Shown here: positions 1,403-20,520 of the stretch, piece by piece | Numbering within the stretch: the first letter of the stretch is position 1 | Layout: every line of letters begins with the position of its first letter | Assembly: GCA_044892525.1 (NCBI GenBank) | Contig: CM097887.1 | Location: 119,142,397-119,206,396 of the forward strand | Direction of reading: 5' to 3' | Length of the DNA: 64,000 bases | Source: Schmidtea polychroa | Lineage: Eukaryota | Notes under the pieces: generated by a model | Told to the model about the DNA's origin: nothing | Databases searched by the model: none | What the model saw: the letters and a program-made list of their open reading frames with translations, nothing else | Program-made: the position numbers and the translations under genes

Positions 1403-2615
1403 AACTGAATTGTGTATTTTTGATCGTCCGTCTCCACAAGTAGTAATTGAAAATGGAATATTTGAAGATGTATTTCCTATGAATTCAATTACTGATTCAA
1501 GGAATGATGTAGAATTTTTTGTTAACGGTTCACAGACTGAATATTTAGATTTGAATGACACTCTATTATCCATTCAGCTGAAGGTTGTAGATAAAGACAA
1601 TAAAGATCTGGCAGATGGTGTTGATGTAATTCCAACCAACTACATGTTTCATACTCTATTTAAAGATGTTATTCTGGGTTTTAATAATATCAAAATCGAA
1701 GGTGGCAACAACACATATGCACACAAAGCTTTAATTGAAACAATTTTAAACTATAATGGAGATACAAAAAGTATTTGTCTTGCGCCGATGGGTTATGGAA
1801 GTAAAGATTTTAGGAAAACATGGATTGCGAAATCAAGACTGTTTTCAATGTGTTCATCATTACAACTAGATTTTATGGATCAGCCTAAATATCTACTTCC
1901 AGGAGTTAATGTACATATTCGTATGAAGAGATCAGACTCAAAATTTTGTTTGGATACATCTGTAGCTGGAGCATCACCAAAATATCAGTTGGTTGATGCA
2001 AAATTAATGGTTCGCTGTGTACGAGTTGAGTCATCAGTGTTGGCTGGCCATCAGATTGGTCTTAATTCACAACATGCGATTTATCCTATCAAAACCAAAG
2101 AAATTGTTGCCTTTGCAATAAGTAAAGATTCATCCTCATTTTATAAAGAACAAATATTTGGCGATAAACGTTTGCCAAATTTTATTCTTGTAACCTTCCA
2201 ATCAGAAGCACAATATAATGGTTCATATACAGAAACTAGCTCAAAATTCGCACATTTCAGTATAACTTCTTTAACTTTATCAAAAAATTCCGATTATCGT
2301 GAAACATATACTCAAGATTTCGACAACGATAACTATGCTGCGACCTATATGCAATCTATAGTTCGAAATATGGGTTATTTAGATAAGAATTTAAATTGCG
2401 GAATCGACATTGTAGATTTTAAGACCAAATATCCTTTCTTTACATTCATTTTGGCTCCAGACTTTGATTGGAATCAAAGTCAATTGCCACAAAATGGAAA
2501 TCTGAGACTTGATATTAAATTCAACAAGGCTTTAACATCTCCTGTATATGTAATTATTTATGGAGTTTTTGAAAGCGAAATACAGATTTCAGCAAATCGG
2601 TCAATTCTAGTTTAA
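1386..2615 (+). CDS. Polinton major capsid protein (double jelly-roll, PY-type)
   Basis: KTELCIFDRPSPQ, EYLDLNDTLL, DFMDQPKYLLPGV and G.LRLDIKF motifs. Start placed at ATG 1386/1389 by comparison with the copy-B start MISAKSELCIF (ORF track starts at 1368). Confidence 0.88.
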   Translation: MMISGKTELCIFDRPSPQVVIENGIFEDVFPMNSITDSRNDVEFFVNGSQTEYLDLNDTLLSIQLKVVDKDNKDLADGVDVIPTNYMFHTLFKDVILGFNNIKIEGGNNTYAHKALIETILNYNGDTKSICLAPMGYGSKDFRKTWIAKSRLFSMCSSLQLDFMDQPKYLLPGVNVHIRMKRSDSKFCLDTSVAGASPKYQLVDAKLMVRCVRVESSVLAGHQIGLNSQHAIYPIKTKEIVAFAISKDSSSFYKEQIFGDKRLPNFILVTFQSEAQYNGSYTETSSKFAHFSITSLTLSKNSDYRETYTQDFDNDNYAATYMQSIVRNMGYLDKNLNCGIDIVDFKTKYPFFTFILAPDFDWNQSQLPQNGNLRLDIKFNKALTSPVYVIIYGVFESEIQISANRSILV

Positions 2616-2628
2616 ACAAAGATGAAGT

Positions 2629-3013
2629 ATGGAGTAAGTTTACTTTCTGATAAACGATTTACTTGATTAGTTCTGTTCAGCTTAATTGTATTGCATCAAA
2701 TCTGTTTGGAGACAGGTTTTTAGGAGTTTATCCGCTGGATAAAATCCCTTTTCTTGAAAGTAACAATGCTTTAATAGTCAATACCCAATCCTCAAGTCTT
2801 GATGGCGAACATTGGCTAGCAGTATTTGTTAAACCTGAAAAGATTAAAGTGTTTGATCCGATGGGTTACTATTATCCGCCTCTATTAGTGTCGAAGTTAT
2901 CGAAATTATCAAAACCTATCGTGTACAATAGAATTCGTTATCAAGAACCGCTAACAGTTACATGTGGACAACATTGTATTGTTTGGTTATGTTTTGAGTT
3001 TAATAAATATTAG
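2629..3013 (+). CDS. Adenain-like (clan CE) cysteine maturation protease, spliced (intron 2634-2670)
   Basis: IVNT...GEHWLAV (His), FDPMG (Asp), Q.....TCGQHC (Gln/Cys). The only suitable ATG is at 2629: ATG GA|gtaagt...gattag|T TCT GTT CAG gives MDSVQLN. Confidence 0.88.
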
Positions 3014-3156: not shown

Positions 3157-6100
3157 TCATGCAAATATATTATCATCATTATCAACAATATTTATACTAT
3201 AGTGTCCATATGCAAAACTTTTGTTCCGACCCACCCATACCCTTTTATCATCCTTATTTGACAGAGCCAACTTTGTTGATTTAAATGTGTAAAGTTGATG
3301 ATTTTTGGACCCAAGCCTCGTTTGTATGACTTTAGGTATTTCCATTCCATTAAAACAGTCGATGTATGATTGATGATCTATCTCAGTTTCATTCAATCTA
3401 ATACCTTTGGCTTTAATAGTTTTCTTTGGACCACCCAACAAACTATAAAGCTTTGGCCGAAGAAATATCCATTCATCATATAGGACTCCCTTACTTTCAT
3501 CCTTAAACTTTCCTATAACAGAATCCAATCTTCTGTTATACAGCGGATGAGACGAATTATAATTAGATGCATCCAATAGATTATCTTGGATCATAGCTTC
3601 TAATAATGTTTGCAATTTAAGATTCTTAATTTCCAAGAAGAATGAATCCGTATCCCCTGCTGCTATATTAATCTCACAATTGAACTGTTCACGATACTTT
3701 TGTAGTTCTATATACTGCAGCTCATACATTCTTAGTTTGGAGAGATCTAAAACTGTTTGTTCAATATACGAAGGTCTATCCAAACATACAACATCAGGAT
3801 TCATAATTGCAGCTATTAAATCATCTGCAATCTTTATACTTCTCTTGAAGGTTGGTTTTGATGAATATGTTACCATTTTTCTTTGTGAATTGCACAACCT
3901 TAAATTCATCCTCTTCTTTAAATTTTCCACTGTTTTCCCATATAAACTGTTGTTTAATAGTTTATAATATCCCTTCTCCAGTTCAGATGTTGATTGAGCC
4001 CTCAATTTGGTGTTGGCTTCCACATATTCCTTGAAAATAGTTGATTGGTTAAACTTGATTGCCCGATGTATATTTGTTATTTCAACTCCTAAAAACATAT
4101 ACATTTTCAATAGTCGCCAATGAATTACATAGTTTTTCTTCGGGTAATGTGTTAACAGAAGCTTTTCCACTTTTGTTCCTTCTGGACACATCTTCTCTGG
4201 TGCAACAGGTAAATCGTCTAATAAATCATGAATTTCATCTGGAATATTCATATCAACCTCCGACGTATATCCATATGGTAAATTCTCTAGTTTTGATGAT
4301 TTACACTCTTCTAGAATAGTGTCCAAATCAGTATGGATCCATTCAAACTTTCCATATGGCAAACTCTGACTAAGTGCCCATCCATACAAGTTATTTATAT
4401 CGATATATAATAACTCTGTATTTTCATCTCTTCTGACTTGATGTTTATTAACGAAAGTCATACCTCCTCGAATGCCAGCTTCATAATAATTATACATGTC
4501 ATTATCTTGCAACAATTCAATAGGTCTATCCAATGACATTAATGCCGATGCCCATGTCATTCCCGGAATACCGAAAAAATTTAAAGGTTCCAATCCATTA
4601 TGGGCTAGTGATTTAGTTCTGAATTGTTGAAAGTAATCTGCTAAAAGATATACATCCAACTTTAGATATATCATCATATAGTCTAAAAGGGTTTCACATC
4701 CGGTTTCAGACCATATGTTCACTGCTTTATCATATGCGGCTTGTGACACTCCTTCCCAAATTGGTGGCAATTCTCTGGTTTCTCGTAGAACTTCCAGGCT
4801 TGTGGCAAAATAGTATGGAAAAATACCTTTTGAATCCTGTATTGTTCCCGTAAATGCTGCATTTGTAATTGGTAAGCTGTTTATTGTTTTTACTGCATTA
4901 TCCAAAGATTCATTTACAAACTGATATGAATCAATGAATTTGATCTTTATTTGCTTACAATGCGCAATAAGCGTAAGAAATTTTTCGGATGTTGTCGGAA
5001 TACAACTCAAATTCCAGTGAGGGAATTTATTTATGCCATATTTTAAAATATGATGCATATCATAACCTCTCAGGTTATGAAATACTACTGGAAGCACTCG
5101 ACGTACTCTTCTTGAAAGATTACATTTTCCACATGCCGCACCTAAATATTTCCCGCTGAAATGATCATGATCTCGAACCAAATGATCACAGTGTTCCTTA
5201 CATATATAACAAAATGATTGCATATTAAAAGAGGATTGTTCCGTTGGACTGAGAATTAAAGGTTGTTTACCATTTCTCTGGTAATAATGATTTACTTTAT
5301 TTTCTGCTATTTCCTCTACTTTCTTTAAAAAATCAAATATACAATTTAACCCAATAAATTGAAAATATGAGGAAGCTCCGCTAAAATTGTTTATCAGCAA
5401 AAGTCCAGCTGAAATCGGTAAGTGTTTCTGATGGTATTGCTGATCGTCTGGTAAAATAGATTCGAAATCAGCATAGATTACGAAAGGTGGAGTCACTTTC
5501 TTCGACCAATCTTTGAATCTGAGCTCTTTTTCTGTTGGCATAACGTACAAAGTTGTCCCAAGCTGATTTTTCTTACATAAAGCCAGATGTCTTTCATATG
5601 TCAATTGTCTCCGAAATCCATTTAGACAATTTACACACCATATACATTGAATTCGAACTGTACAATTATTGGATACATGACAGTTCATTAACCTGTTGAT
5701 ATTAGGTATTCCAACGTAATGGTAATTATTACTTTCACTTAGTAATAATAAATATATTGGTGTAACATCTTTAACCTTTGTCCTCCGAATTATGTCTATA
5801 TTCGGATGTTTCATAACAACATCATCATCATCATTATTTAAATATGTATCATCCGACTCGTATGAGAGAACATTGATCGCCAATCCTGGATTCTGATCTT
5901 CAAATTTCTTTATGTCATTCAATGTTGTCGGAGGGTTTTCCAAATCGTAATTTACTTCATTCATGTACCGATAATATTGTGACGGTCTGTTACGGTTTTC
6001 ATGAATGTCTTCGTATTTCAATATAGACAAAACGCTGTAGATAAAACACAGATTGTCTTGATTTTGGATGTTTATAATTTTATTCTTTAATGATGCCGGG

Positions 6101-7380
6101 GTTCTTATGTGTCGATGTCCAGACAATCGACTAATTTCGGCAAACTTTGTTATTTTAAAATTAATCTCCAGTATCCTGTTAAGACGCCAACTGCTACCCA
6201 ACTCCGATCTAATAGCAATTTTCTCATTCAAACTTTCGATTCCTTCATCTAAAAAGTCATCTGTTAATTTTGTGGCTCTATTTGAAATTCTTGCAGTCTT
6301 CAGCTCACCATCTTTGACGAATTCTGCATTGATCCCGAACTGTATCTTAACGCTCTTCATTTCATTTATACAAGCGTTTAATTTTATCAACAACGTTGGT
6401 GGAATAACTATTTTTTGTATATTATAACAAGATATGTCCAGTGTGATAATTCTATGTGTTCTGTATAAATCACATTCAATTTCCGGTTCATCTGATATTC
6501 CTGCTCCTGTTTGAAAGTCATCAACTAGTGAGTAGTGATCTGCATAGTCAGTACTATCACTGTCAACATTCGATATATTTTCGTTTTGATCATTGAAATC
6601 TAGTTCTTCTATTATTTCAAACGATCCATTTATTATATCAATTTCTTCTTCTTCAGATCTTCCGACGTCTTCGCACCTTGAACTTCCAACTTCTTCACGC
6701 CTTGAACTTCCAACTTCTTCACGCCTTGAACTTCCTGCTTCTTTGCGCCTTGAACTTCCAGCTTCTTTACGCCTTGAAGTTCCAGCGTATTCGCACCTTG
6801 AACTTCCAACTTCTTCACGCCTTGAACTTCCTGCTCCTTTGCGCCTTGAACTTCCAGTTTCTTCATGCCTCGAATCTTCTTCCTCCGAATCCATGATTAC
6901 AATTATTTCTGAGTTTGATATTGCATTTTCTATTTTCTCCAATCTTGCTTTTTTATTTTTAATTAAGTGAGTGGAAACCTTTCTTTTGATAAGCTTATCT
7001 TCACGCCTTGAACTTCCTGCTTCTTTGCGCCTTGAACTTCCAGTTTCTTCATGCCTCGAATCTTCTTCCTCCGAATCCATGATTACAATTATTTCTGAGT
7101 TCGATATTGCATTTTCTATTTTCTCCAATCTTGCTTTTTTATTTTTAATTAAGTGAGTTGAAACCTTTCTTTTGAAAAGCTTATCTTTACGCATCACAAA
7201 TTGATTTAAATGTGTCTTATGCGTGTTATAAAAGGACATGTAGGGATCGGAACTTAAAGTTTCGCAATATGGGCATAAAAAGTAATTTTGTTGATAATAT
7301 GTTTTGCCATAATATGTTTGCATGATTTTATGACAGCTTTTATTGTGACTACTGTTTTGACAATAATTTGGGTATAACAC
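3157..7380 (-). CDS. Protein-primed family B DNA polymerase (pPolB) with long N-terminal extension
   Basis: 1407 aa open frame. ExoI IYADFES, ExoII FHNLRGYD, ExoIII YLKLDV; endonuclease-VII-like Zn motif CYIC..RDHDHFSGKYLGAACGKCN; PolA DINNLYG, PolB KLLNNSLYGKT, PolC GDTDS. True start uncertain (GTG 7380, or a later ATG). Confidence 0.95.
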   Translation of the reverse strand: MLYPNYCQNSSHNKSCHKIMQTYYGKTYYQQNYFLCPYCETLSSDPYMSFYNTHKTHLNQFVMRKDKLFKRKVSTHLIKNKKARLEKIENAISNSEIIVIMDSEEEDSRHEETGSSRRKEAGSSRREDKLIKRKVSTHLIKNKKARLEKIENAISNSEIIVIMDSEEEDSRHEETGSSRRKGAGSSRREEVGSSRCEYAGTSRRKEAGSSRRKEAGSSRREEVGSSRREEVGSSRCEDVGRSEEEEIDIINGSFEIIEELDFNDQNENISNVDSDSTDYADHYSLVDDFQTGAGISDEPEIECDLYRTHRIITLDISCYNIQKIVIPPTLLIKLNACINEMKSVKIQFGINAEFVKDGELKTARISNRATKLTDDFLDEGIESLNEKIAIRSELGSSWRLNRILEINFKITKFAEISRLSGHRHIRTPASLKNKIINIQNQDNLCFIYSVLSILKYEDIHENRNRPSQYYRYMNEVNYDLENPPTTLNDIKKFEDQNPGLAINVLSYESDDTYLNNDDDDVVMKHPNIDIIRRTKVKDVTPIYLLLLSESNNYHYVGIPNINRLMNCHVSNNCTVRIQCIWCVNCLNGFRRQLTYERHLALCKKNQLGTTLYVMPTEKELRFKDWSKKVTPPFVIYADFESILPDDQQYHQKHLPISAGLLLINNFSGASSYFQFIGLNCIFDFLKKVEEIAENKVNHYYQRNGKQPLILSPTEQSSFNMQSFCYICKEHCDHLVRDHDHFSGKYLGAACGKCNLSRRVRRVLPVVFHNLRGYDMHHILKYGINKFPHWNLSCIPTTSEKFLTLIAHCKQIKIKFIDSYQFVNESLDNAVKTINSLPITNAAFTGTIQDSKGIFPYYFATSLEVLRETRELPPIWEGVSQAAYDKAVNIWSETGCETLLDYMMIYLKLDVYLLADYFQQFRTKSLAHNGLEPLNFFGIPGMTWASALMSLDRPIELLQDNDMYNYYEAGIRGGMTFVNKHQVRRDENTELLYIDINNLYGWALSQSLPYGKFEWIHTDLDTILEECKSSKLENLPYGYTSEVDMNIPDEIHDLLDDLPVAPEKMCPEGTKVEKLLLTHYPKKNYVIHWRLLKMYMFLGVEITNIHRAIKFNQSTIFKEYVEANTKLRAQSTSELEKGYYKLLNNSLYGKTVENLKKRMNLRLCNSQRKMVTYSSKPTFKRSIKIADDLIAAIMNPDVVCLDRPSYIEQTVLDLSKLRMYELQYIELQKYREQFNCEINIAAGDTDSFFLEIKNLKLQTLLEAMIQDNLLDASNYNSSHPLYNRRLDSVIGKFKDESKGVLYDEWIFLRPKLYSLLGGPKKTIKAKGIRLNETEIDHQSYIDCFNGMEIPKVIQTRLGSKNHQLYTFKSTKLALSNKDDKRVWVGRNKSFAYGHYSINIVDNDDNIFA
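6655..7190 (-). repeat. Coding repeats in pPolB N-terminus: 27-nt tandem units plus a ~175-nt duplication
   Basis: Units GAACTTCC(A/T)(A/G)CTTCTT(C/T)(A/G)CGCCTT encode GSSRR(K/E)E(A/V). The block KRKVSTHLIKNKKARLEKIENAISNSEIIVIMDSEEEDSRHEETGSSRRK occurs twice. Confidence 0.95.
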
Positions 7381-8464
7381 ACCTTAAAATAAATAATGAT
7401 TTAAATATTTATTAAATGAATTTTATTTTATTAAAATAATTCGGGTTTCCCTTTTGTGTTCCATATATTTTGAGAAAAAAGTTTTATAATCACAACAATG
7501 TGTAGTTTATTTTATTCAAGTGTAAGACATCCGACAAAAAACCATTACTTTATAAGTTAAAAATGCTAAAGGTAAACGGATGCATTTGTAAACAGTTTTT
7601 ATTTATTGACTATTTTTTTAGTCAACAGAGGTGATTATGATTTCATACCTTATGTTTACGTGAATACAGATTTCTGTGACCAAGCTATTATGAAAGTGAT
7701 GTGATTTCCAGTGTACCATGGAAAGTATGCAATAAAGCTAGATCAGTAATATTGTATTCTTATTGATACATAAAGAATTCTTTGCGTCTCCTATATAGTA
7801 CTGATGATAGCAAAAACAATTACTTGTAATGTTTATATTATTTAAATAATATTAAAAATAAATTAAAATTATTATAAAATTTATTAAAAAAATATTAATG
7901 TTGTTTAGTTTAATATTATAACTAAGACGATCCAATTGACATTTTTACCGTTTTTGTCATTTTTACCATATATATTTTTTTTTTAAAAAAAAACACATTA
8001 TTTATGTTTAAATTTGTTTAAATATAATATTAATTATATTTTTAAAAGACACACAATGGAGAAAATCTCAAATTCACAAAGATTTGTATCTATTTTCAAT
8101 TTCAATTTATTAAATATATATATAAAATAATCATCCTTAATTAAAATCTAATATATAAAGATGAAAATTTGTTTGTTTTCTATAGAATTCCCCACCGTCG
8201 GACCTAGGATGCTGAAATTTTACACGTGGCCCTCATTTGACTCGGTACAGGTCATAGACTATGTTTCAACCCCAGGTGACTACCCCTAAGTACCCTTAGT
8301 CGGATTTGTTTTGTCTGTCCGGTCAGCAATTTACCATATAAATAATTTATTATATGCTTGCTACTTGAAGTTAAAAGTAATATAATTTAGTCAAAAATTT
8401 TTAAACAGAATTCAAACTTATAGAATTTGTATTTTATTTGATTAGTGAACCAGTTTGCAATTGG

Positions 8465-9190
8465 AAAATATTACCGGTTATTTTTGATTTAAATTGAAGG
8501 GTTTTTGATTTTACAAATTGAAATTTATTTTGAAAGCTTTTCTTATTGTAATTGAACATAGAATCGAAACTTATAAAATTAATACTGGAACGTATTAACA
8601 TCATTAAAAAATTAATTTAAATTTAATATTATGATAAATGAAAGCGGGTAAAACATTTAGTTTATTATAAAATTTATTAAAAAATAGTATTTAATTAAAA
8701 TTTAATTTATTATAAAAATTTAAAACTAACATTTAGCATAGAAATCTTCCATATCATTTCCTTGATCGATATCGCAAACTATTTTCTAAACGAAAAACTT
8801 AATATATATATATATTAAATAAATATTACCGGAAAAATATTACCGGTTATTTTTGATTTAAATTGAAGGGTTTTTGATTTTACAAATTGAAATTTATTTT
8901 GAAAGCTTTTCTTATTGTAATTGAACATAGAATCGAAACTTATAAAATTAATACTGGAACGTATTAACATCATTAAAAAATTAATTTAAATTTAATATTA
9001 TGATAAATGAAAGCGGGTAAAACATTTAGTTTATTATAAAATTTATTAAAAAATAGTACTTAATTAAAATTTAATTTATTATAAAAATTTAAAACTAACA
9101 TTTAGCATAGAAATCTTCCATATCATTTCCTTGATCGATATCGCAAACTATTTTCTAAACGAAAAACTTAATATATATATATTAAATAAA
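8465..9190. repeat. ~369-bp near-perfect tandem duplication (2 copies)
   Basis: TTACCGGTTATTTTTGATTT starts at 8471 and 8840, and the following sequence is repeated nearly identically. Confidence 0.92.
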
Positions 9191-9608
9191 TAAAGTTTAC
9201 CGTTTGGTTATTAATATTTGGCATTCTTCTTCTTTTATTCTGATTGAATAATATCTAAAAGAAAAGAAAATAAATATTTAACAAGAGCAAAATAAAATCT
9301 TACTTGTTAGATAAAAATTTATTGATTAAATGAAATTTAAATGTAATATTAAAACAATAGTTAATCTAAGCAACTATTGTTAGCAACCAAATAGAATCTT
9401 CTAGAATTTTTTTATATAAATAAGAATATTCTTTTTATTCATAGATTTTGTTCATAGATAAATAATAACTAATTATTGTATCTAAATATTTATTGTTACC
9501 AATCAACTAGAATGTTCTAGAATGTTCTAGAACATTCTAGGTTGATCTAGAATGTTATTATTAATATGTAAGTAATAAATATGAATTTTATGCAAGTTAA
9601 ATTAACTA

Positions 9609-10042
9609 TCAAAGTTTATAAATTTTTATTAAATTGACAAAAAATATAATGAAACGTTTAAACATAGTTCTTAACCAAAAATGTAACTCTAATTTTTTTA
9701 TATATTTCCAGTCACCATTTTCTTTGATCCATGGGTAAATTTTTGTAATTTCTTGCACTGGCCAGTTCATATATTTTGGATGTTCATTTGGACATAAAAT
9801 AAGAATGTTTCTGACGTACATTAAGCTAACGATGACTTTAGACCAACATATGCCATCCTGAAACAACGATTCAAAGACATCCTTGAATGTTTTTCCTGAT
9901 TACCTTCCGATGATAAAATAGAAGAGAAATCAATGGTACATCGAAGCTCTACTTCTTTTATTATTTTTAATAAACAATTTATTGTTTGATCATCACTTTT
10001 ATAAATTAAACCATTGACAATGGCGATTATGTATTCATTCAT
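9609..10042 (-). CDS. Bcl-2-like protein, split by a 1-nt frameshift in an A5 run (plus-strand T 9890-9894)
   Basis: Adding one A joins ORFs 9821-10042 and 9609-9866 into ~144 aa with BH1-like TFKDVFESLFQDGICWSKVIV, BH2-like IYPWIKENGDW and a hydrophobic/basic tail. Confidence 0.78.
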
Positions 10043-10197
10043 TGTAAAAATGAATGTATCTTGAAATTATTATGCAAGACTAATGCATATTTTGATTGGT
10101 TAATGTAACAAGTATTTGATTTGTTGATAAAATGAACAAATGAGATATGTATGTGAGACAGTGTGTGTATAGAACTTAAAGTTTATCATTATTTCAA

Positions 10198-10608
10198 ATG
10201 TTGAATATGAAGAATGAGCAACCGTTATTTAAAGCAACTTATATTTTTCATGAGCATCAAATACATTTACTAGTCAATCCAATCAATTACAATTTGTTGA
10301 TTCCTGTTGAACTAGTGAAAACTAGTTACAATTACTGGATTGAAGAATTCTCTCAAGAAGATCAAGAAGCGATTACTACAATATTTGGACGAATCAACAA
10401 GCAACTTATAGTTAATGAAAATGGTTCATTCATAGGCGGTCCATCAACGAAATTTTATGATGAAGACGAGAATCAAATCCCATTTAAACCTAATGCTAAA
10501 TGGAATATGAAAATTCGCATTCAAGGTTATAAAATAGCGCCAAGTACAGCAATATTACCTATATGGAAAATTGTAAGTGGAAAATTGCAAAGAAATTATG
10601 TATGTTAA
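10198..10608 (+). CDS. Polinton accessory protein, possibly an OB-fold ssDNA-binding protein
   Basis: 136 aa. The C-terminal block MKIRIQGYK...ILPIWKIV is shared with ORF 16496-16693 in element B. The SSB assignment is resemblance only. Confidence 0.55.
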   Translation: MLNMKNEQPLFKATYIFHEHQIHLLVNPINYNLLIPVELVKTSYNYWIEEFSQEDQEAITTIFGRINKQLIVNENGSFIGGPSTKFYDEDENQIPFKPNAKWNMKIRIQGYKIAPSTAILPIWKIVSGKLQRNYVC

Positions 10609-10747
10609 TATCTTATGTTATTTTTATTAAATAAATGTTTCTGTTTAAAAATCGTGTTGTTATGATATCATAATTTGGTTGTCATAATAATATTTAAAAT
10701 TTAAAATAATCAATATAATTACCTAGAGTTATCCATTATTTTCAATA

Positions 10748-11083
10748 ATGTTAGTAAATAGTAATTACCGTCGAATAATGGGTTGCGAAAAACCTATTGA
10801 AAGCATACATTATAATATTAAAGATGTTCATCTTCAATCTTGTACAATTACTATTGATATCAAACAACTAATTAATTTGCAATATTTGTCAAAGAAAACA
10901 AAATGTGTATATGAACCAGAAATATTCCCGGGTTTGCGTCTCATATCTTATAACCCCTTGTGTGTAAACTTGTTTTCTAGTGGAAAAATAGTTGTACTTG
11001 GTTTAAAAACTTTAAATTATAATTGGATTGTCAACAAAATTATAAATGATGTAAATGATTTGATTGGTTCACAAAAACGATAA
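10748..11083 (+). CDS. Single-repeat TBP-like (TATA-binding fold) protein
   Basis: 111 aa. LQSCTITIDIKQLINLQYL..YEPEIFPGL..P..VNLFSSGKIVVLGLK aligns by eye with TBP repeat 2 (YEPELFPGL..LIFVSGK.V.TGAK). Only one repeat is present. Confidence 0.82.
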   Translation: MLVNSNYRRIMGCEKPIESIHYNIKDVHLQSCTITIDIKQLINLQYLSKKTKCVYEPEIFPGLRLISYNPLCVNLFSSGKIVVLGLKTLNYNWIVNKIINDVNDLIGSQKR

Positions 11084-11116
11084 ATATTGTACACTTTAAC
11101 ATTTGTTTCATTTATT

Positions 11117-11476
11117 ATGATGTCACAAGTTTCTGAAATCGGTAAATAAATATATTTTATTCTTAAACTTTTAAAATTATGTTTAGATTATCAAATAGAA
11201 ATTCTAATTAATAAAGTGTTTGAGATTTATCCTGAAATCAAAGATGAAATTATAAATTATGCTCCGGAAATTGCACCAGCCAAAATATTTCAGGCAACAG
11301 GGATTAACATAGAGCGCATTATTTTTCACCATAAATTTATGATGTATGGTTATGAAAAGCAAACTCAATTACTAAAAGATTCATGTTGTCAATATCAATG
11401 TCAAGAATGTATTACTTACAAAAGAAAACAAACAGTAAACATTCTACTCAACGAATTGTATAAATATTTCAAATAG
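11117..11476 (+). CDS. Small spliced accessory protein with Cys cluster (intron 11142-11186)
   Basis: ATG ATG TCA CAA GTT TCT GAA ATC G|gtaaat...tttag|AT TAT CAA joins in frame with ORF 11216-11476; contains CCQYQCQEC. Confidence 0.6.
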
Positions 11477-11826
11477 TTTTTAATAAATGTTTCATTGTTT
11501 TGAAAATTTAATTAGAAATAGTTAATATTTTTAAAATTGCGCGCGAAAAATAATTTTTAAAACCAAGATTCGAGATCTCTGATATGAATTACATATAAAA
11601 CAAAAACATTGGTATTAATATCTCTATTTATATTGGCTCTATATATTAATCAAATGAGTTTATTTAAACAAATATTCATAGTTGACGCAATAACAGTATA
11701 CATTTGAACAAAGATTTGAAATCTCCATTCAAAAATACTATAGAAAGCTGAAAGTCCCATCAAAATATGTAAATTTTACGATGCACTGTCATAAATAGAA
11801 TCGTTGAAAATATTTCAAAGTCCGTC

Positions 11827-13422
11827 GGACATAGCCGAATTTTTGAGAATTATCGATTGGTTTTACTTTTTCTTAATTCCTGAGAGAACCAAGAAATTTT
11901 TCGAGGATTTTATTTCGGAATCTTCTTAGTTGAATCAAGACGCAACTTTTTTGTTAAGGATGTCTCGACTAAATATACTTGGTTCCCAATGTTCCAAAAA
12001 TTATTCCTTAAAAACGTGAAATTTATATTGAAAAGAAATCTTTTCGTTGATTTTCTTATAAAATAATCTGTGTCGACAAATAACAAATCTTTTTTCGTGG
12101 AAAATGTCTGGGTGAAATCTTTAATGTAAGAAAGGCACATCTGACTAAATTTTGCACTTTTTGCACTTTTTGCACTTTTCACTTAAAAATCAATATATGC
12201 GCGATAACTCATCGATCAAACGCGCAATAACTCATCAGTAGGGGGGTGGGGGGTATATATGCGCGATAACTCATCGATCAAACGCGCAATAACTCATCAG
12301 TAGGGGGTGGGGGTATATATGCGCGATAACTCATCGATCAAACGCGCAATAACTCATCAATCAAAATCCGTGATAATTCATAATACATTCGGACATAGCC
12401 GAATTTTTGAGAATTATCGATTGATTTCACCTTTTCTTAATTCCTGAGAGAACCAAGAAACTTTTCGAGATCTTTATTAAAGAATCTTCTTAGTTGAATC
12501 AAGACGCAACTTTTTTGTTAAGGATGTCTCGACTAAATATACTTGGTTCCCAATGTTCCAAAAATTATTCCTTAGAAACGTGAAATTTATATTGAAAAGA
12601 AATCTTTTCGTTGATTTTCTTATAAATTAATCTGTGTCGACAAATAACAAATCTTTTTTCGTGGAAAATGTCTGGGTGAAATCTTTAATGTAAGAAAGGC
12701 ACATCTGACTAAATTTTGCACTTTTTGCACTTTTTGCACTTTTCACTTAAAAATCAATATATGCGCGATAACTCATCGATCAAACGCGCAATAACTCATC
12801 AGTAGGGGGGTGGGGGGTATATATGCGCGATAACTCATCGATCAAACGCGCAATAACTCATCAGTAGGGGGTGGGGGTATATATGCGCGATAACTCATCG
12901 ATCAAACGCGCAATAACTCATCAATCAAAATCCGTGATAATTCATAATACATTCGGACATAGCCGAATTTTTGAGAATTATCGATTGATTTTACCTTTTC
13001 TTAATTCCTGAGAGAACCAAGAAACTTTTCGAGATCTTTATTAAAGAATCTTCTTAGTTGAATCAAGACGCAACTTTTTTGTTAAGGATGTCTCGACTAA
13101 ATATACTTGGTTCCCAATGTTCCAAAAATTATTCCTTAGAAACGTGAAATTTATATTGAAAAGAAATCTTTTCGTTGATTTTCTTATAAATTAATCTGTG
13201 TCGACAAATAACAAATCTTTTTTCGTGGAAAATGTCTGGGTGAAATCTTTAATGTAAGAAAAGCACATCTGAATAAATTTTACACATTTTGCACATTTTG
13301 CACATTTTGCACATTGCACTTAAAAATCAATATATGCGCGATAACTCATCGATCAAACGCGCAATAACTTATCAGCAAGGGGGAGGGGGAGGGGGGGTTA
13401 TATATGCGCGATAACTCATACT
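11827..13422. repeat. 564-bp tandem repeat (~2.8 copies) with nested 60-62 bp G-run subrepeats at the putative terminus of element A
   Basis: GGACATAGCC at 11827, 12391 and 12955. Subrepeat GCGCGATAAC at 12199, 12261 and 12321, separated by GGGGG(G)TGGGGG(G). Confidence 0.95.
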
Positions 13423-14419
13423 GATTCATGGGGCTCACATCTACCTACTAATGTGATTTTTACTTTGCATTAATAAGTCAGTAGTTATCATTTAAAAGAA
13501 GAATGTTTTGTAAATTAGAATTCATTAGTCTTTCATTGTAATTTAAATTATTTTGAATTCCACGTGGTGATAAGTTGACAATTATTCATTTTTTGATGAA
13601 AATCAACATTTTTGTTAAATTTAAAAAGGTTTTTCTACTGATTGTAATTAAATATATTTTTGAAGATAGATAAAAAATTAATTTTAAAAAATACATTTCA
13701 TAAAATACAATAAAGAATATTTAGTAGTTAGTTGTAAGTATGTCTTTGTTTGAGAGTTAGTTAGTACGTGGTATCATGTTGTAAGTATTTGTTAGCACCT
13801 AGTTAAAAATATTTAATAACCGATTGTCGGTAACTGTTGAATTATTATTTTTATTATTATTATTCCATTAAAATTTGACATTGACTTTGAAAAATATTTC
13901 ATTGAAATTAACTTAAAAAATTAACTTAAAAATTATTTCATTAAAATTTTCATTAAAAATTAACTTAAAAAATTATTTCATTAAAATTTACTTTTAAAAT
14001 TAACTTAAAAAAAATTCCATTTAAATTTTCATTAAAAATTACATTTCTCAAAAAAGTAGGTGGTTATTCAAACTTTTGATAATAAATTTAAAAATCTTAC
14101 TTAAATTTACTTATTTAGCTTTAATTTTAAATTTTGAACCTTAATTTTTCTTAATTTATCCTTAATTTACCTAATTATTCTTTATTTCTTAATTTTACAC
14201 CATAATTTACTTAACAACTAAATATAATCCTTATTTTCATATTTAACCAATAATTTCATGTGGTCATTGATTAATTGACGAAGATTTGCATCTAAAATTA
14301 ACATTGAAAATCCCAGAAAACTTTCATCTTAAATTGACTTTAACTTTAATATTTTAGATCATTGATTAGTTAATTTAAAAATTAAACATTAATTTACCTA
14401 TTTAACCAATAATTTCATG

Positions 14420-15430
14420 TGGTCATCTAGTTGTAAGTGTTTGGTATCTAGTTGACAGTGCTTAGTACTAGGTAAGTTACTTGGTTGTTAGTACTTGGTT
14501 GATAATGCTTAGTACCTGGTTGATGTTGGTTGTAAGTACTGGGTAGGTGGTAGTTAGTTGTTAGTATCTAGTTGTAGGTACTTAGTTGATAATGCTTAGT
14601 ACCTGGTTGTTGTTGGTTGTTAGTACATGGTAGGTGGTAGCTAGTTGGTTGTAGGTACTTAGTAGTTGGTTAATAATGCTTAGTACCTGGTTGATGTTGG
14701 TTGTAAGTACTCGGTATCTGGTACCTAGTTGGTTGGTTGTTTTGGTTGTATGTACTTGGTAACAGGTAACTGGTTGTTAGTAACTAGTTGTAGGTTGTAA
14801 GTGTTTGGTATTTAGTTGACAGTGCTTAGTAGTTGGTTGTTGTTGGTTGTAGGTACTTGGTTTCAGGTAACTGGTTGTTAGTAACTAGTTGTAGGTATCT
14901 GGTTGTTGTTGGTTGTATGTACTTGGTAGGTGGTAGCTAGTTGGTTGTAGGTATCTAGTTGTAGGTATCTGGTTGGTTGCTTGTTTTTGGTTGTTAGTAC
15001 TTGTTAGATGGTTGTAGGTACTTAGTATCAGGTAACTAGTTGTTAGTAACTAGTTGTAGGTACTTGGTATCTGGTAATTTGTTGTAGGTACTTGGTATCT
15101 AGTTGACAGGGCTTAGTACTTGTTTTCTAGTTGTTAGTACTTGGTTGGTGGTAGCTAGTTGGTTGGTTGTAAGTACATAGTTGGTTGTAGGTACTTAGTA
15201 GTTGGTATCAGGTTGTTGTTATCTAGTTGTAGGTATCTGGTTGATGTTGGTTATAAGTAGTTGGTAGGTGGTTGTAGGTACGTAGTAGTTGGTTGTTGTC
15301 GGTTGTTATTATTTGGTATCTTGTATTTGGTATCAGGTAACTGGTTGTTAGTATCTAGTTGTAGGTATCTGGTTGCAAATACATGTTCGTAAGTTACTGG
15401 TTGTTGGTACTTAGTTGTTGGTTTGTTGTT
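14420..15430. repeat. G/T-skewed degenerate short-unit array
   Basis: Shuffled units such as TAGTTG, GGTTG, GTAGGTA(C/T)CT and CTTAGTA over ~1 kb; no long ORF; flanked on both sides by similar AT-rich blocks. Confidence 0.85.
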
Positions 15431-15689
15431 GAATTATTATTAAAATTTGTCTTTGAAAAATATTTCATAAAAATTTCCATCTAAAATTATTTTAAAAATT
15501 TCCATCTAAAATTATCATAGAAAAATATTTCATAAAAATTTCCATTAAAAATTAACTTAAAAAATTATTCCATAAAAATTTCCATTAAAAATTACCATTG
15601 AAAAATATTTTATTAAAATTTTCATTAAAAAATTTCAATTCTCAAACACCTTCTATTATTTCAACTTTTTGTTAATAAATTTTAAAATC

Positions 15690-16215
15690 TTACTTTAATT
15701 TACTTTAATTTACTTATTTAAAAAATTATTACTTTAATTTACTTATTTAATTTTAATTTTAATTTTTTACTTTGATTACTTAATTTTAAAATTTGGACCT
15801 TAATTAACTTTAATTTAATTTTTTAGAACCTTAATTTAGTTATTTGAGCCCATTCATTACTTTAATTTAATTTTTTAGGACCTTAATTTACTTTATTTTA
15901 ATTTTTTTAGAACCATTATTTACTTAATTTATAAATTTGAACCTTAATTTACTTAGTTGAGCCCTTATTTAACTTTAATTTTAAATTTTGAACCATTATT
16001 TACTTTAATTTAAAAATTTGAACCTTAATTTAGTTATTTGAGCCCATTCATTACTTTAATTCAAAAATCTTAGCCCATAATTTACTTATTTAGACCATAA
16101 TTTACTTTATTTCAAAAAAAATCTGAACCTTGATTTACTTAAATTTAATTTTTTAGACCCATCATTTACTTAAATTTAATTTTTAGAACCATTATTTACT
16201 TTAATTGAAAAATTT
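15690..16215. repeat. AT-rich degenerate tandem array
   Basis: Recurring TTACTTTAATTT...GAACC/GAGCCC units of roughly 35-45 bp. Confidence 0.7.
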
Positions 16216-16495
16216 ACTATGCGTTTTTAATGTAAACCACCTTTGCTATTGACATTCTCATGACCAAGGAGATCCCCTCACTATAGTCTGAAAAATCCAT
16301 GCTTTTTTATTGAAGACTACCTTTTTCTATTGAAATTCTCAGGACCAAGGAGAGCCACCCAAATAATATTTATCCTTGGCTTGTTTATTGAAAAAAAAAT
16401 TTTGTATTTAAAATCCCAGAAAACATTGGGCATTACGGCAACAATTATGTAATCAAAAATGTCTACGGAAAAAGTTATGCAATATTTTAGAATTA

Positions 16496-16693
16496 TTGTT
16501 GGCTATCAATAAAAATATTCAATTCAATGAAAACTTTACATTTATGAATTGTGCTAAAGATTATGCTTTAGAAAATATTAAAGAAGAAAATGAAAATTCA
16601 CATTTTATGATAAAAATTCAAATTCAGGGTTTTAAAGAAGGAAAAGAAACAATCAGCCCTATATGGAAAATAATTGATACTAATATATTATAA
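16496..16693 (+). pseudogene. Partial homolog of element-A ORF 10198-10608
   Basis: MIKIQIQGFKEGKETISPIWKII versus MKIRIQGYKIAPSTAILPIWKIV; no clear ATG start. Confidence 0.6.
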
Positions 16694-17422
16694 GTCTTTA
16701 TTTGTTTCTTATGTTATGGTATACATTATAATTTAATTAAAAATATTGCATTTAAAAAATTTTTTTTATTGATAAATTTAAATTGATTAAATAAAATAAT
16801 TAAATTTAAATAAAATCATAAATTATTATTATCTAATAAATTCAAAATTGTTTTAATTTTTACTTTGAGTAAATTAAATTAAATTCAAATTTGTAAACTA
16901 AATTAAAATGAAATATAATATTTAAATTAATATTAATTTAATTAAAATGAAAATATCTTTAAATACTGAAAAATATATATAATACTTACATTTTATCATG
17001 TTTGCATTAATTTTCTTGGAATTATTTCGAACCATTTTATCATTGTTGGTGTTTAAGTTTTTGTTGTTCATGTTATTTGAGTGGTTGCAAATCTTGCTAT
17101 TGACATTGTTCATGTTATTTGAGTTGTTGTAATTGTTGTTGTTGTTGCAATTCATTACCTAGAAAACATTATAAGAGAATTATTAATTAATTAATTACAT
17201 AAAACTTACAAAAGTTTGGGTATTGATAAAAGTGACTTTTAAATGAATAGTTTTCATTTATATACTACATATTACACAACAATGATTGAATAAAATAGTA
17301 ACCAATAAAATTCAAGAAACCAAACACGTAATCACATACCATTAAATTATATTTACTAGTAGGATGACATAAAAAATTACAAACTAACAAGATAATATTT
17401 ATTTGATTAAATTTTCTTATAT

Positions 17423-17807
17423 TCAAAGATCTTTCATTGACTTCAACCACGCTAAACAATGTTGCCCACATGTTTTTGTCAATGGACTTTGATAGCGAAT
17501 TTTATTATATTCAATTGGCATTAACAATGATTGAAGTTTTGATATTAATAGAGGAGGATAATAAAACCCCATGGGATCAAATGCATATATTTTTCCGGTT
17601 TCACATAAACTGCGAGCCAATGCTCTCCCATGAGATTACAAGATTGAGTATTTACAATTAAAGCCTTGTTTACATCAATATATGGTATTTTATCTAATGG
17701 AAAAACTCCAAGAAATTCAGCTCCGAACAATCTTCGACCTATGTATTCAATCTGAATAGAACTATTATCAATAAATTAAAGTAATAAAAATGAAATTCTT
17801 ACTTCAT
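17423..17807 (-). CDS. Adenain-like protease of element B, spliced (intron 17762-17802), 1-nt frameshift
   Basis: ATG AA|gtaag...aatag|T TCT ATT CAG gives MNSIQIEY. GEHWLAV, FDPMG and TCGQHC are present. Frame broken in an A5 run (plus-strand T 17590-17594). Confidence 0.85.
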
Positions 17808-17869
17808 TTTTAATAATTATTGTTTCCTAATTTGGTTTATAGTTCAAGCCAATCATTTTCAAACTTTAT

Positions 17870-19096
17870 TTACACTAGTACTGTACGATTGGATGTAATT
17901 TGAATCTCTTTTTCAAAGACGCCATAGACTATTACAGAAATTGATTCTGTTAGAGGTGTTCCAAATTTAATATCAAGTCTTAAATTTCCTTGCTGTGGCA
18001 ATTGACTTTGATTAAGATCAAAGTCTGGAGCCAATACAAATGTAAAGAATGGATACTTTTCTTTAAAGTCAGACATACTAATTCCACAATTAATATTCTT
18101 ATTAAGGTAACCCATGTTTCTAATTATTGACTGCATATAACTTGTACTATAATTATCATTTTCAAAATCTTGACTATATTTTTCACGATAGTCGCTTCCT
18201 TTCAATAAAGTTATTGATTTTACATTATTGTGGTCGTACATTGAATAAGAATTTGTTAGTGATCCATTATTTCTTTTATTTCTTTGAAATGTTACAAGGA
18301 TAAAATTTGGTAATCGCCGATCACCAAAGATTTGTTCTTTATAAAAAGAAGAAGATCCAGTAGGTAACGAAAATTCGACAACTTCCTTGCTTCTCAAAGG
18401 ATAAATTGCATTTCTTGAAGCAAGTCCAATTTGATGACCAGCTAAAACGGATGGTTCAACTCGAACTCTTCTTACCATTAATTTTGCATCTAATAATTCA
18501 ATTTTAGGTTCTACTTTTGTACATGTTAAACTATGTGATGGACTTGATCTCGTCAATTTAATTTGGACACTAACACCAGGTAATAAATATTTTGGTTGAT
18601 CCATAAAATCAAATTGTATTGGTGAACATAATGAAAATGGTTTAGATTTTGCAATCCACGCTTTTCTTATATTATCATCTTCACTGTACCTCATACCTTC
18701 TAAACATGTACGTTTTGTATCATGATTGTAATTTAATATGGTTTCGATTAATGCTTTATGAGCAAATGTATCATTTCCTCCTTCAACTTTAATAGAATTA
18801 AAAATTAATTCAGCTTCTTTAAAAAGAGTTTGGAAAAAGAAATTGTTTGCAGTTACAACAGAATCATCAGAAATATTTTCACCTACATTATTTACAACTT
18901 TCAACTGAAGATAAAGTAAAGTATCATTCAAATCTAAATATTCGGTTTGAGATCCGTTAATGTAAAATTGAATTGAAGAGGTACCAGTATCCGTAATTGA
19001 ATTCGTTGGATAAATATCTTCAAATGAACCATGTTCAATTACTGCTTGAGGTGATGGTCTATCAAAAATACATAATTCAGATTTTGCACTAATCAT
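17870..19096 (-). CDS. Polinton major capsid protein (element B)
   Basis: 408 aa, intact; same motifs as 1386-2615 but clearly diverged. Confidence 0.88.
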   Translation of the reverse strand: MISAKSELCIFDRPSPQAVIEHGSFEDIYPTNSITDTGTSSIQFYINGSQTEYLDLNDTLLYLQLKVVNNVGENISDDSVVTANNFFFQTLFKEAELIFNSIKVEGGNDTFAHKALIETILNYNHDTKRTCLEGMRYSEDDNIRKAWIAKSKPFSLCSPIQFDFMDQPKYLLPGVSVQIKLTRSSPSHSLTCTKVEPKIELLDAKLMVRRVRVEPSVLAGHQIGLASRNAIYPLRSKEVVEFSLPTGSSSFYKEQIFGDRRLPNFILVTFQRNKRNNGSLTNSYSMYDHNNVKSITLLKGSDYREKYSQDFENDNYSTSYMQSIIRNMGYLNKNINCGISMSDFKEKYPFFTFVLAPDFDLNQSQLPQQGNLRLDIKFGTPLTESISVIVYGVFEKEIQITSNRTVLV

Positions 19097-19494
19097 TTTT
19101 CGAATATAGTTCCAAAGCCTTTCATTCTTTTGTTTATATGCTTCTTTAATGTTTTTCTGCGTTTAATCATTCCACCTTTTTGTTCATTCTCTTGTTTATT
19201 TAAAACATCAAATACTTTATTAATTACAGTAGGCAAATGTTGAATTACATCAGGTAGTGAATGTTTAATTTCAGATAAAACATTTGATTTTAAAGCAGGT
19301 AGAATTTTTGAATTGTTATTTATTACATCATGTGCAGTTTTCATACCAAAATTACCTATGCGTCTAAGAATTGGTAAAGCAAATCGACCTATTGTTTTTA
19401 ACCAACCTGTTCCATATTGTTTACCAACAAAATATGGTAAATCTCCACCAGATTGACTTTTACTATAAAAGTTTACAATATCAGGATTATTCAT
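19093..19494 (-). CDS. Polinton basic core protein (element B)
   Basis: 133 aa; QSGGDLPYFVGKQYGTGWL..IGRFALPILRRIG; basic C-terminus. Confidence 0.7.
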   Translation of the reverse strand: MNNPDIVNFYSKSQSGGDLPYFVGKQYGTGWLKTIGRFALPILRRIGNFGMKTAHDVINNNSKILPALKSNVLSEIKHSLPDVIQHLPTVINKVFDVLNKQENEQKGGMIKRRKTLKKHINKRMKGFGTIFEK

Positions 19495-20515
19495 TTATTT
19501 TACGAAAATGTAGTGTTAAATGTGTTTTGGTGTCTTTTGAAAATTTAACTAAATTTCCACTATCGTTGCGAATATTAATTTCAATGTTGTTTATAGATGA
19601 AGATGAAATTGGAAGGTACATTGGGTTCTTTATTTCTAACTGTACTACCTCTCCCTGTTCATATCTTTTAATCCATATCGATTTTAATAGAGGAACTCTT
19701 ACATCACCAACATTTATTGGTTCAATGATATTAGAATAAATAAACATTTGTTGATGAATTTTAAATATTTTTGGAATTTTCACACCAACAAAGTCTTTTT
19801 CATTATAAGTTTGATTCTTTAATCCTAAAGCTTTTGTTAATTTTTGAACAAAGGTAATATTTGAAATATCTACAAGTGTTATTTTTACCAATTCTTGATT
19901 TTGAAGATGTATTTCTTTAAATGGAGATGGATTAATTGTCATTAAATATCCTCGCAACTCTGATAAAGTAGTTAAGAATAATTCATCTTCAAAATAATGT
20001 TCGAATTTTGTCTTGATATCGTAATTTATAGTTATCCCAATTTGTTCAATGATATTATTTTCAGTAAATTTAGGTAATTTAATTCGACAATGGTCAGTTT
20101 TGCTAATGATTGATATGGTTTTTAATTCAAACTTAGATGCAGGTTTGGTGTCAAGAAATGATATTTTAAATGGAACATGTGGACAAACTATCACTAGGTT
20201 TTCATATCTTTCCAAGAACACATCAACATCTGGATTATACGTAGAATTTAAAATTTCTAAGATTTTGTTTTGATTATCAATTTTCAAGTATTTAGTTTCT
20301 TCGCATGATTTTTTAAATTCGTATTGTACCCATGAATTACTGTAATACGGAAAATGATTATACACAAATGTAAAATCAATCAAAGCTACTTTCCACTTCC
20401 CATTCAAATAAATTGGGTTTTGAAATTCAACTTTAAAATTACTAGCATTATTATCAGGATAAATAAGAGTACAACTATTACTAGGTAAAATCATATAAAA
20501 CTGGTTTTCCTTCAT
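19487..20515 (-). CDS. Polinton minor capsid protein (element B)
   Basis: 342 aa; termini homologous to 10-1020, central region divergent. Confidence 0.8.
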   Translation of the reverse strand: MKENQFYMILPSNSCTLIYPDNNASNFKVEFQNPIYLNGKWKVALIDFTFVYNHFPYYSNSWVQYEFKKSCEETKYLKIDNQNKILEILNSTYNPDVDVFLERYENLVIVCPHVPFKISFLDTKPASKFELKTISIISKTDHCRIKLPKFTENNIIEQIGITINYDIKTKFEHYFEDELFLTTLSELRGYLMTINPSPFKEIHLQNQELVKITLVDISNITFVQKLTKALGLKNQTYNEKDFVGVKIPKIFKIHQQMFIYSNIIEPINVGDVRVPLLKSIWIKRYEQGEVVQLEIKNPMYLPISSSSINNIEINIRNDSGNLVKFSKDTKTHLTLHFRKINE

Positions 20516-20520
20516 AATAT

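Follow-up and report, generated by a model that had tools for sequence, protein, structure and literature searches.

An accessory gene block with a reduced TATA-binding protein in an endogenous Polinton of Schmidtea polychroa

Introduction

The closest described relatives of the element examined here are the adintoviruses (Starrett et al. 2021, PMC8502044), for which the text of that paper reports homologues of Bcl2 and IAP, as well as oncoid genes that lie upstream of PolB. A label for the TATA-binding protein (TBP) appears in its Figure 5 legend, mainly for non-animal MELD viruses, and the label 'SSDBP' in the text of Figure S2; no flatworm term was found in the text of its supplement 1. This work concerns a block of four genes at positions 9609–11476 of a 64,000-nucleotide (nt) stretch of Schmidtea polychroa DNA (contig CM097887.1, positions 119,142,397 to 119,206,396; the whole stretch is called the window). 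The four genes, for a Bcl-2-like protein, a candidate single-stranded DNA-binding protein (SSB), a small TBP (mini-TBP) and a cysteine-cluster (Cys) protein, are accessory genes of a complete, many-copy endogenous Polinton/Maverick, a virus-like element.

Adenoviruses encode a Bcl-2 homologue (E1B-19K) and, in the E2 region, an SSB beside a protein-primed polymerase; they are not known to encode a TBP. Planarian Polintons are present in Repbase. In beta- and gammaherpesviruses a viral TBP (BcRF1/ORF24/UL87) reads a variant TATT box on late promoters, according to PMC4893493. The text of Jeong et al. 2023 (10.1101/2023.08.22.554363) gives Polintons with the HNH-insert polymerase pPolB2 from land nematodes and oomycetes alone, and planarian Polintons are described in PMC8532177 as PIWI targets that are de-repressed when a PIWI protein is lost. 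The literature search found no paper on a TBP or a late box in animal Polintons, with subscription journals, Repbase and figures lying outside its range.

The element resembles adintoviruses, as the text of PMC8502044 describes them, in its terminal repeats, target duplication, rve integrase, ATPase, adenain, PolB and accessory genes upstream of PolB. Going by that text rather than by the figures, it differs in that no TBP is given there for animal elements and no late box is described. A further difference from adintovirus oncoids is that no LxCxE-type motif was found in SSB, Bcl-2 or Cys exon 2, the three sequences covered by the scan. A first-pass annotation of the window had suggested that the gene combination may define an undescribed lineage of endogenous viruses; Bcl-2 cargo and an oncoid region beside, and upstream of, PolB are both already known from adintoviruses (PMC8502044). 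What deserves to be followed is the mini-TBP with its promoter box, the SSB of the gp2.5 type and the Bcl-2 with its traceable donor. The reading we favour, with some reserve, is that the block serves one family of endogenous Polinton/adintovirus as its early, non-structural region, with a mini-TBP that drives a late class of promoters.

Results

The four-gene block and its conservation

The block is made up as follows.

9609–10042, minus strand: Bcl-2-like gene, frameshifted near 9889; a 144-amino-acid (aa) open frame in sister copies
10043–10197: divergent gap of 155 bp, candidate shared early promoter, with a CCAAT box (GATTGG) at 10094–10099
10198–10608, plus strand: SSB candidate of 136 aa with a predicted T7 gp2.5/giant-virus-type oligonucleotide-binding (OB) fold; frame open
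10748–11083, plus strand: mini-TBP gene, Pfam TBP match above cut-off; 114 nt absent in frame after 10769
11120–11141, plus strand: Cys gene exon 1, 22 nt; an extra ATG at 11117 is unique to the window copy
11142–11186, plus strand: predicted GT-AG intron of the Cys gene, 45 nt, phase 1, with an in-frame stop
11187–11476, plus strand: Cys gene exon 2, with an invariant C-x3-C-x2-C

All four reading frames were found at the places and on the strands first assigned to them, and the block does lie between PolB and the terminus: the start of PolB is 2,285 bp away, and 38 bp separate the block from the inner edge of the right repeat. The gaps within it (155, 139 and 33–36 bp) are as short as had been described, but their likeness to the spacing of the core genes is only loose, the gaps there being −8, −17, 38 and 143 bp.

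The genome searched comprises 781 Mb in 1,012 contigs, four of them very large (the window lies on contig C3); together with AT-rich DNA and the Bcl-2 domains in giant frames described below, this fits a planarian. In a search with the SSB, 150 of 3,428 candidates were scored and the best 30, including the window copy, were taken as close loci (loci are denoted by L numbers). Among these 30, Bcl-2 is present in 24, TBP in 26 and Cys in 21. All four genes occur together in 20 of them, which, with the dN/dS values given below, speaks for more than a chance grouping. The proposed synteny is thus seen at close range; order and strand vary in divergent families. All four frames are open in 4 of the 30.

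The ratio of nonsynonymous to synonymous substitution (dN/dS) is well below 1 in 16/16 pairs of copies, ranging from 0.07 to 0.43 in the 14 pairs with a finite dS; dS is saturated in the 2 further pairs. Between diverged copies the values are 0.16–0.43 for SSB (4 pairs), 0.16–0.23 for TBP (4 pairs), at most 0.19 for Cys (3 pairs, one dS-saturated) and 0.07–0.30 for Bcl-2 (5 pairs, one dS-saturated), and the putative capsid gene, used as a control, gave 0.20. All four genes have thus been under purifying selection and encoded functional proteins during the spread of the element. Four sisters are 99.75–100% identical to sister L004 across 2 kb, showing that this family spread recently.

The window copy is defective, having an interrupted ATPase gene and damage in two of the four block genes. 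It differs from L004 at 25 of 2,010 aligned bases, besides losses of one base and of 114 bases. The single base lost near 9889 splits the Bcl-2 gene over two frames, and the 114-nt deletion removes most of the first TBP lobe. This damage, together with the few close loci with all frames open and the existence of a host relative of Bcl-2, would suit an origin of the reading frames as decayed host fragments or unrelated insertions carried as passive passengers. Such an origin is highly improbable. It is largely refuted by the purifying selection on all four genes; moreover, the TBP is far nearer to metagenomic viral relatives than to two host TBP-like genes, the SSB lacks a host-type counterpart, and the position of the Cys intron is kept over families whose proteins are 18–38% identical.

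The mini-TBP

The 'half-TBP' of the first-pass annotation is a lesion of the window copy. Sisters encode a protein of 149 aa with both lobes, and lengths over sisters and other families are 145–156 aa; a half-TBP acting as a homodimer was considered and rejected, the missing half being the deletion. Pfam PF00352 matches in two stretches with 53.7 bits, above its cut-off. A model of the sister protein (predicted local distance difference test, pLDDT, 94) superimposes on yeast TBP 65–240 with Z 13.3 and a root-mean-square deviation (rmsd) of 2.5 over 146 aligned residues, 23% of them identical by structure. On this model, the mini-TBP appears to be the whole two-lobed saddle minus the first (N-terminal) stirrup and the long helix of the first lobe, and it is about 30 residues shorter than cellular TBP.

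TBPs have four intercalating phenylalanines, two stirrups and two long helices. Like cellular and giant-virus TBPs, the mini-TBP has a two-lobed saddle, three of the four intercalating phenylalanines and an acidic C-terminal stirrup. Residues F41, F98, F114, R102 and K118 are present in 46/46 TBP sequences and E94 and E96 in 45/46; the position of the first intercalating phenylalanine is occupied by an invariant P-x-Q, and the other three are invariant. The kept residues are presumably those that contact DNA and TFIIB, and the lost parts the surfaces used by TFIIA and inhibitors.

The protein scores 78–163 bits against metagenomic viral relatives and 26–29 bits against two host TBP-like genes, a comparison that left out the main, intron-split TBP of the host. 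A profile search gave 2,916 matches among 5,069 candidates, probably including ordinary TBPs; the 120 matches listed are mostly of about 150 aa and 40–62% identical. The best viral fold matches are giant-virus TBPs. Two metagenomic TBPs (L098 and L103) are longer and keep part of the lost helix, suggesting that the protein shrank stepwise. Several divergent host TBP-like genes are also present in the genome.

Promoter boxes

For the box counts, the first in-frame ATG was taken as the start, a box was counted at up to 110 nt before it, and expectations were obtained from shuffled sequences. The word ATAAAC precedes 37 of 39 starts of ATPase, basic-protein, integrase, penton, core and capsid genes (5.0 expected), and only 2 of 28 starts of PolB, SSB, TBP and Bcl-2 genes (2.5 expected). 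All nine ATPase genes have it (9/9), in 8 cases at −30 to −36. In the window it is absent before all four block genes and PolB. Its final C is kept over the families of the genome and in metagenomic elements, with the box at about −30 to −40; before accessory starts a TATA-like word, where there is one, is mostly TATAAAA or TATAAAT. The CCAAT box shows the reverse trend, occurring before 9 of 28 accessory and PolB starts and 1 of 39 particle and integration starts. The distance from the CCAAT box of the divergent gap is 57 nt to the Bcl-2 start and 104 nt to the SSB start, and the box is kept in 7 close copies.

These counts bear on what the mini-TBP does. The hijacking of host transcription first proposed for it fits them less well than service at the element's own late promoters, which is the more likely role. 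The genes might instead be functional accessories without any TBP switch, host TBP reading ATAAAC as a TATA variant and the mini-TBP working elsewhere, for instance on terminal repeats or replication intermediates. TATAAAC is one base off the canonical TATA box, and the mini-TBP lacks the first intercalating phenylalanine position, so this has some appeal; we think it unlikely, given the conserved C in the last position at about −30 to −40 and the sharp split between gene classes.

A reading by the mini-TBP of its own box would have its nearest parallel in the herpesvirus viral TBP, which is likewise an early TBP-fold protein in a system without a viral RNA polymerase, with a variant TATA box on structural genes (PMC4893493). 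The herpesvirus proteins, as described there, are large, share about 10% identity with TBP and belong to a six-protein complex (PMC4893493), unlike the stand-alone 149-aa protein and ATAAAC box found here. The likeness is taken as a parallel, not as a sign of common origin.

Arrangement across families and relatives

Of 120 more distant SSB matches in the genome, 11 loci were fetched. TBP lies near SSB in 10 of the 11, head-to-head with ATPase in 8, and Bcl-2 is present in 4. The order in divergent families is TBP, (Cys), SSB and an acidic open reading frame (ORF), followed by Bcl-2 on the other strand. Outside this genome, 80 metagenome loci were kept of 102 confirmed, and with one viral contig these make 81 outside loci; the scans of viral contigs gave no relative in one case and one weak locus in the other. 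A Polinton core gene is present in 38 of the 81 and SSB in 22 (17 of the 41 loci with more than 1 kb upstream), on the TBP strand in 15 and opposite in 7. Bcl-2 or Cys was found in 0/81, with profiles built from two sequences each and many of the contigs short. Two of these relatives (L048 and L051) share the core gene order of the window.

SSB and mini-TBP thus form, on this sequence comparison, what looks like an old module of the lineage, with Bcl-2 and Cys as apparent add-ons of this host lineage. Since order and strand differ by family and the outside loci have no Bcl-2 or Cys matches, the block is not the conserved four-gene cassette that had been suggested: other families of the genome reorder it, and metagenomic relatives keep SSB and mini-TBP alone. 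Nor does the four-gene combination mark a lineage of this host group, the marker being SSB plus mini-TBP, which is not confined to this host.

These observations also bear on the original proposal as a whole, in which the four genes form a fixed cassette for host control, comparable to adenovirus E1B/E2 and special to the host group, with a TBP that hijacks or jams host transcription. In its favour, the four genes are syntenic in 20/30 close loci, all without a late box, Bcl-2 and Cys are present in several families of the genome, and a TBP with lost surfaces could be a decoy. We nevertheless rate it as improbable: order and strand change from family to family; TBP and SSB persist in the 81 outside loci, where the (shallow) Bcl-2 and Cys profiles match nothing; the DNA-binding residues of the TBP are kept and the private box tracks the lineage; and SSBs of the adenovirus type are not OB-fold proteins, according to PMC4889955. 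The element does resemble E1B-19K/E2 in that a homologue of Bcl-2 and an SSB accompany a protein-primed polymerase, and differs in the predicted fold of the SSB and in that its Bcl-2 appears to trace to a host paralogue in the same genome. What stands of the proposed early region is that the four genes are viral and conserved and, being without the particle-gene box, resemble an early class; the adenovirus parallel gives way to the nearer one with herpesvirus viral TBP.

Between SSB and Bcl-2 of other families (L033:5248-5496, L039, L140, L142) there is an acidic ORF ending in C-G-D-D-x-C-E-C, a candidate oncoid-like gene that was not found in the family of the window. Cargo genes near TBP in the metagenomic relatives L051, L057, L098 and L103 include a ubiquitin-conjugating enzyme, a dual-specificity phosphatase, a phospholipase A2 (PLA2)-like protein (L098) and KilA-N. 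The virion accessories of adintoviruses include PLA2X, GasderminX and cupiennin (Starrett et al. 2021).

The SSB candidate

The predicted protein of the second gene (ORF2) matches no Pfam family, and a word-indexed search with it alone gave no match. A model based on a 10-sequence alignment reached pLDDT 75. In a comparison with 48,161 chains, the four best structural matches were T7 gp2.5, a DUF2815 protein, Enc34 SSB and African swine fever virus (ASFV) CP312R (Z 5.9–5.0, rmsd 4.2–5.1). Foldseek ranked Enc34 SSB and gp2.5 first in the PDB (E 0.04–0.2) and gave 20 matches at E ≤ 0.001 among viral models, mostly giant-virus proteins. The ESM Atlas led to Nucleocytoviricota clusters (0.95), with DUF2738 on 10–13% of the members of two lower clusters. 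Of the 90 proteins that a profile search yielded, one is probably its own, and the 21 that were scanned in Pfam showed weak, unrelated matches alone.

Combined, these lines of fold comparison, each of moderate strength, lend moderate support to ORF2 as a gp2.5-type SSB, in keeping with its first description as SSB-like. SSBs of the gp2.5 type end in an acidic C-terminal tail. The predicted OB-type fold would be shared with T7 gp2.5, Enc34, ASFV CP312R and Nucleocytoviricota SSBs; the differences from the gp2.5 type are a length of 136 aa, 5–10% identity, the lack of an acidic C-terminal tail in the ORF2 alignment and the partnership with a protein-primed polymerase. This pairing would be unusual, because the SSBs of protein-primed viruses are reported in PMC4889955 to be unrelated to OB folds.

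The Bcl-2 gene and its host relative

The 3′ part of the window gene matches Pfam Bcl-2 at E 3.8e-5, and the gene of L004 narrowly passes the cut-off of PF00452 (32.7 against 31.4 bits). The BH1 motif of the viral protein is CWSK, compared with NWGR in Bcl-xL and RWSR in the host gene L154. In a test for a C-terminal anchor, mean hydropathy was about 1.1 over the last 19-residue windows.

Eight host-type Bcl-2 frames, from the best rows of a genome search with Bcl-2, were used for comparison. The closest of the eight is L154 (88.6 bits, 41% identity), apparently a single-copy, intron-bearing gene, followed by one at 28 bits. L154 occurred once in that search, and the 10 kb to each side of it hold no Polinton gene. 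A GT donor directly after the GGW of BH2 is present in L154 and in 4/7 other host genes, and absent in the viral gene. In a tree of all 16 rows the grouping of L154 with the viral genes is weak (64/71). After four long or short rows (Burro, L027, L155, L182) had been left out, L154 and both viral groups separated from the six other host genes in the unrooted tree with 93/92 support. The approximately unbiased test gave p-AU 0.31 for both constraints, so that one capture and two captures fit alike. The simplest reading of these sequences is that Bcl-2 was captured from an L154-type host gene.

The Bcl-2 gene of other families has its own intron before BH2 (L039:5496-5973), away from the host donor site. 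Frames that reach about 3,050 aa also contain Bcl-2 domains (L173, G000:C1:6414000-6423999, and numerous other rows). Domains within frames of about 3,000 aa fit the planarian Burro giant retroelements as described in PMC6431247; two unrelated mobile elements of this genome carry Bcl-2. A cluster of seven near-identical host Bcl-2 matches lies at G000:C4:89.9-90.8 Mb (L183–L188).

The Cys gene

The spliced structure first proposed for the Cys gene agrees with the sequence comparison, in which intron position and phase appear conserved between families. A strict pattern matched the intron in 14/30 close loci (it chose a wrong site in L177), and phase and size recur in L141, L035/L032, L039 and L178, making five families with that of the window. 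The three cysteines are invariant in 7 aligned sequences of 18–68% identity, and the gene directly follows TBP wherever both were seen.

No homologue of the protein was found outside the genome (best score 0.89 in one search; none of 305 candidates at E ≤ 0.1 in another), and the sequence gave no sign of TFIIB identity. An NCBIfam match was disregarded (17 bits against a cut-off of 75), as was a likeness to the ORFs behind TBP in L044/L045 (probability 4%). A complex prediction for TBP and Cys exon 2, made without alignments, scored 0.00 and counts neither way.

The rest of the element and its surroundings

The gene order of the element is ATPase, basic protein, integrase, putative penton, core, putative capsid, protease, PolB (on the opposite strand) and the four genes. 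The following features lie in the window.

10–1020, plus strand: putative minor capsid (penton) protein, named from its position
1013–1402, plus strand: putative basic core protein; ATAAAC boxes at 913 and 958
1386–2615, plus strand: putative major capsid protein, 409 aa, named by size, place and conservation; ATAAAC box at 1346
2622–3013, plus strand: adenain-type protease; a short first exon followed by an intron of about 47 nt is probable
3157–7323, minus strand: PolB, 1388 aa, with an endonuclease VII/HNH insert; exonuclease and polymerase motifs recognised by pattern
11515–13449: right terminal inverted repeat, three 564-bp units; outer end is the complement of 5′-AGTAGG
13450–13455: target-site duplication of 6 bp, identical to the six bases beside the left end

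The right repeat matches L042:4670-6111, upstream of the window, in inverted orientation at 95–98% identity, and both ends of the element read 5′-AGTAGG. Target duplications of 6 bp were seen in 3/3 copies read at both ends, the two sisters having other 6-bp sequences. The integrase (L042:8888-9901) matches Pfam rve with 45.6 bits, above the cut-off, and has a weak chromodomain; the packaging ATPase was recognised through its homologue L033 (Pox_A32, 27.8 bits, above the cut-off). About 1.4 kb with a transposase-like frame lies inside the ATPase gene of the window copy (L042:6248-7691), and this insertion accounts for the copy being 18.7 kb long, compared with 15.9 and 16.5 kb in two sisters.

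The protease passes Pfam Peptidase_C5 (22.1 bits against a cut-off of 21.3) and was found by its own profile at E 3e-34; its frame has no ATG, and an element lacking a protease was considered and rejected on the strength of that profile. PolB has no PolB match in Pfam, PHROGs, NCBIfam or PDB sequences and none to PF03175; its Endonuclease_7 matches are below cut-off, and no OTU domain, a feature of the PolB N-terminus in adintoviruses (Starrett et al. 2021), was found there in a Pfam scan. The missing PF03175 match and the endonuclease VII/HNH-type insert liken it to the pPolB2 class, by these features and not by a tree. The N-terminal part of PolB (6659–7192) has in-frame repeats of 24 bp and 186 bp.

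The 2.3-kb non-coding gap ahead of PolB holds a 369-bp tandem duplication (8465–9192). Contig depth over the non-coding stretch 7487–8668 is tens of times that over the four genes, and this stretch may be shared with commoner elements. Satellite-rich arms are mirrored around the element (window 13809–16483, L042:3-835 and L124:8334-9901; inverted matches of 81–100%), and it may sit between the arms of another Polinton or a palindromic derivative. A second, decayed Polinton of another family lies at 16412–21644 on the minus strand, with integrase pieces, penton, core, a capsid gene 64% identical, a frameshifted protease and an SSB-like relic at 16412–16690 (plus strand); it is cut by a hAT-like transposase at 21896–23671.

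Discussion

If the block is an early region, host RNA polymerase II would transcribe Bcl-2, SSB, TBP and Cys from host-type promoters, Bcl-2 and SSB probably sharing one promoter gap. The SSB would coat the strand that the protein-primed PolB displaces. The mini-TBP, with its DNA-binding underside and C-terminal stirrup kept, would bind the (T)ATAAAC box of the element and recruit host polymerase to the particle genes and those for ATPase and integrase, making an early-to-late switch. The Bcl-2 derived from a host paralogue, with a likely anti-death role, would probably delay the death of the host cell, and the Cys protein would most likely be a small regulator of the early–late programme that binds metal.

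Several points weigh against this account. The mini-TBP and the box are linked by co-occurrence alone, and the box counts are not independent, since the rows share ancestry and many boxes fall within the coding sequence of the gene upstream, so that the p-values come out too strong. The bidirectional promoter first suggested for 10043–10197 stays a candidate, with a shared CCAAT box in the gap, but this box is altered in 4 divergent copies, and 19/28 accessory starts are without a CCAAT box. Four contig sets show an even, DNA-like cover of coding and non-coding sequence and list no splice joint at the Cys intron; such sets carry no information on expression. The capsid candidates are conserved ORFs of fitting size and place, yet match nothing in the libraries. 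Only one of five ORF2 models was good (the others had pLDDT 36–40), with Z under 8. The replacement of NWGR by CWSK makes the anti-death activity of the viral Bcl-2 unsure.

A wider interpretation is possible, though we hold it to be doubtful. A widespread Polinton lineage would then run a herpesvirus-like early–late switch with a pared-down TBP that recognises an ATAAAC box of its own and evades the regulators of host TBP, aided in this host by the Cys protein; it would combine a giant-virus-type SSB with a protein-primed polymerase and a Bcl-2 taken from an identifiable host gene, and the many near-identical copies would be proviruses of a virus active in a laboratory flatworm.

The four-gene cassette itself matters less, being the arrangement of one family. 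Almost all knowledge of animal Polintons as viruses with a staged expression programme is in silico. A TBP gene together with a box that marks only particle genes offers a direct, testable handle on such a programme, in a planarian host, where de-repression of Polintons on loss of a PIWI protein is described (PMC8532177). Beyond this, the viral Bcl-2 has a traceable host donor, and a natural mini-TBP shows which surfaces of TBP can be lost.

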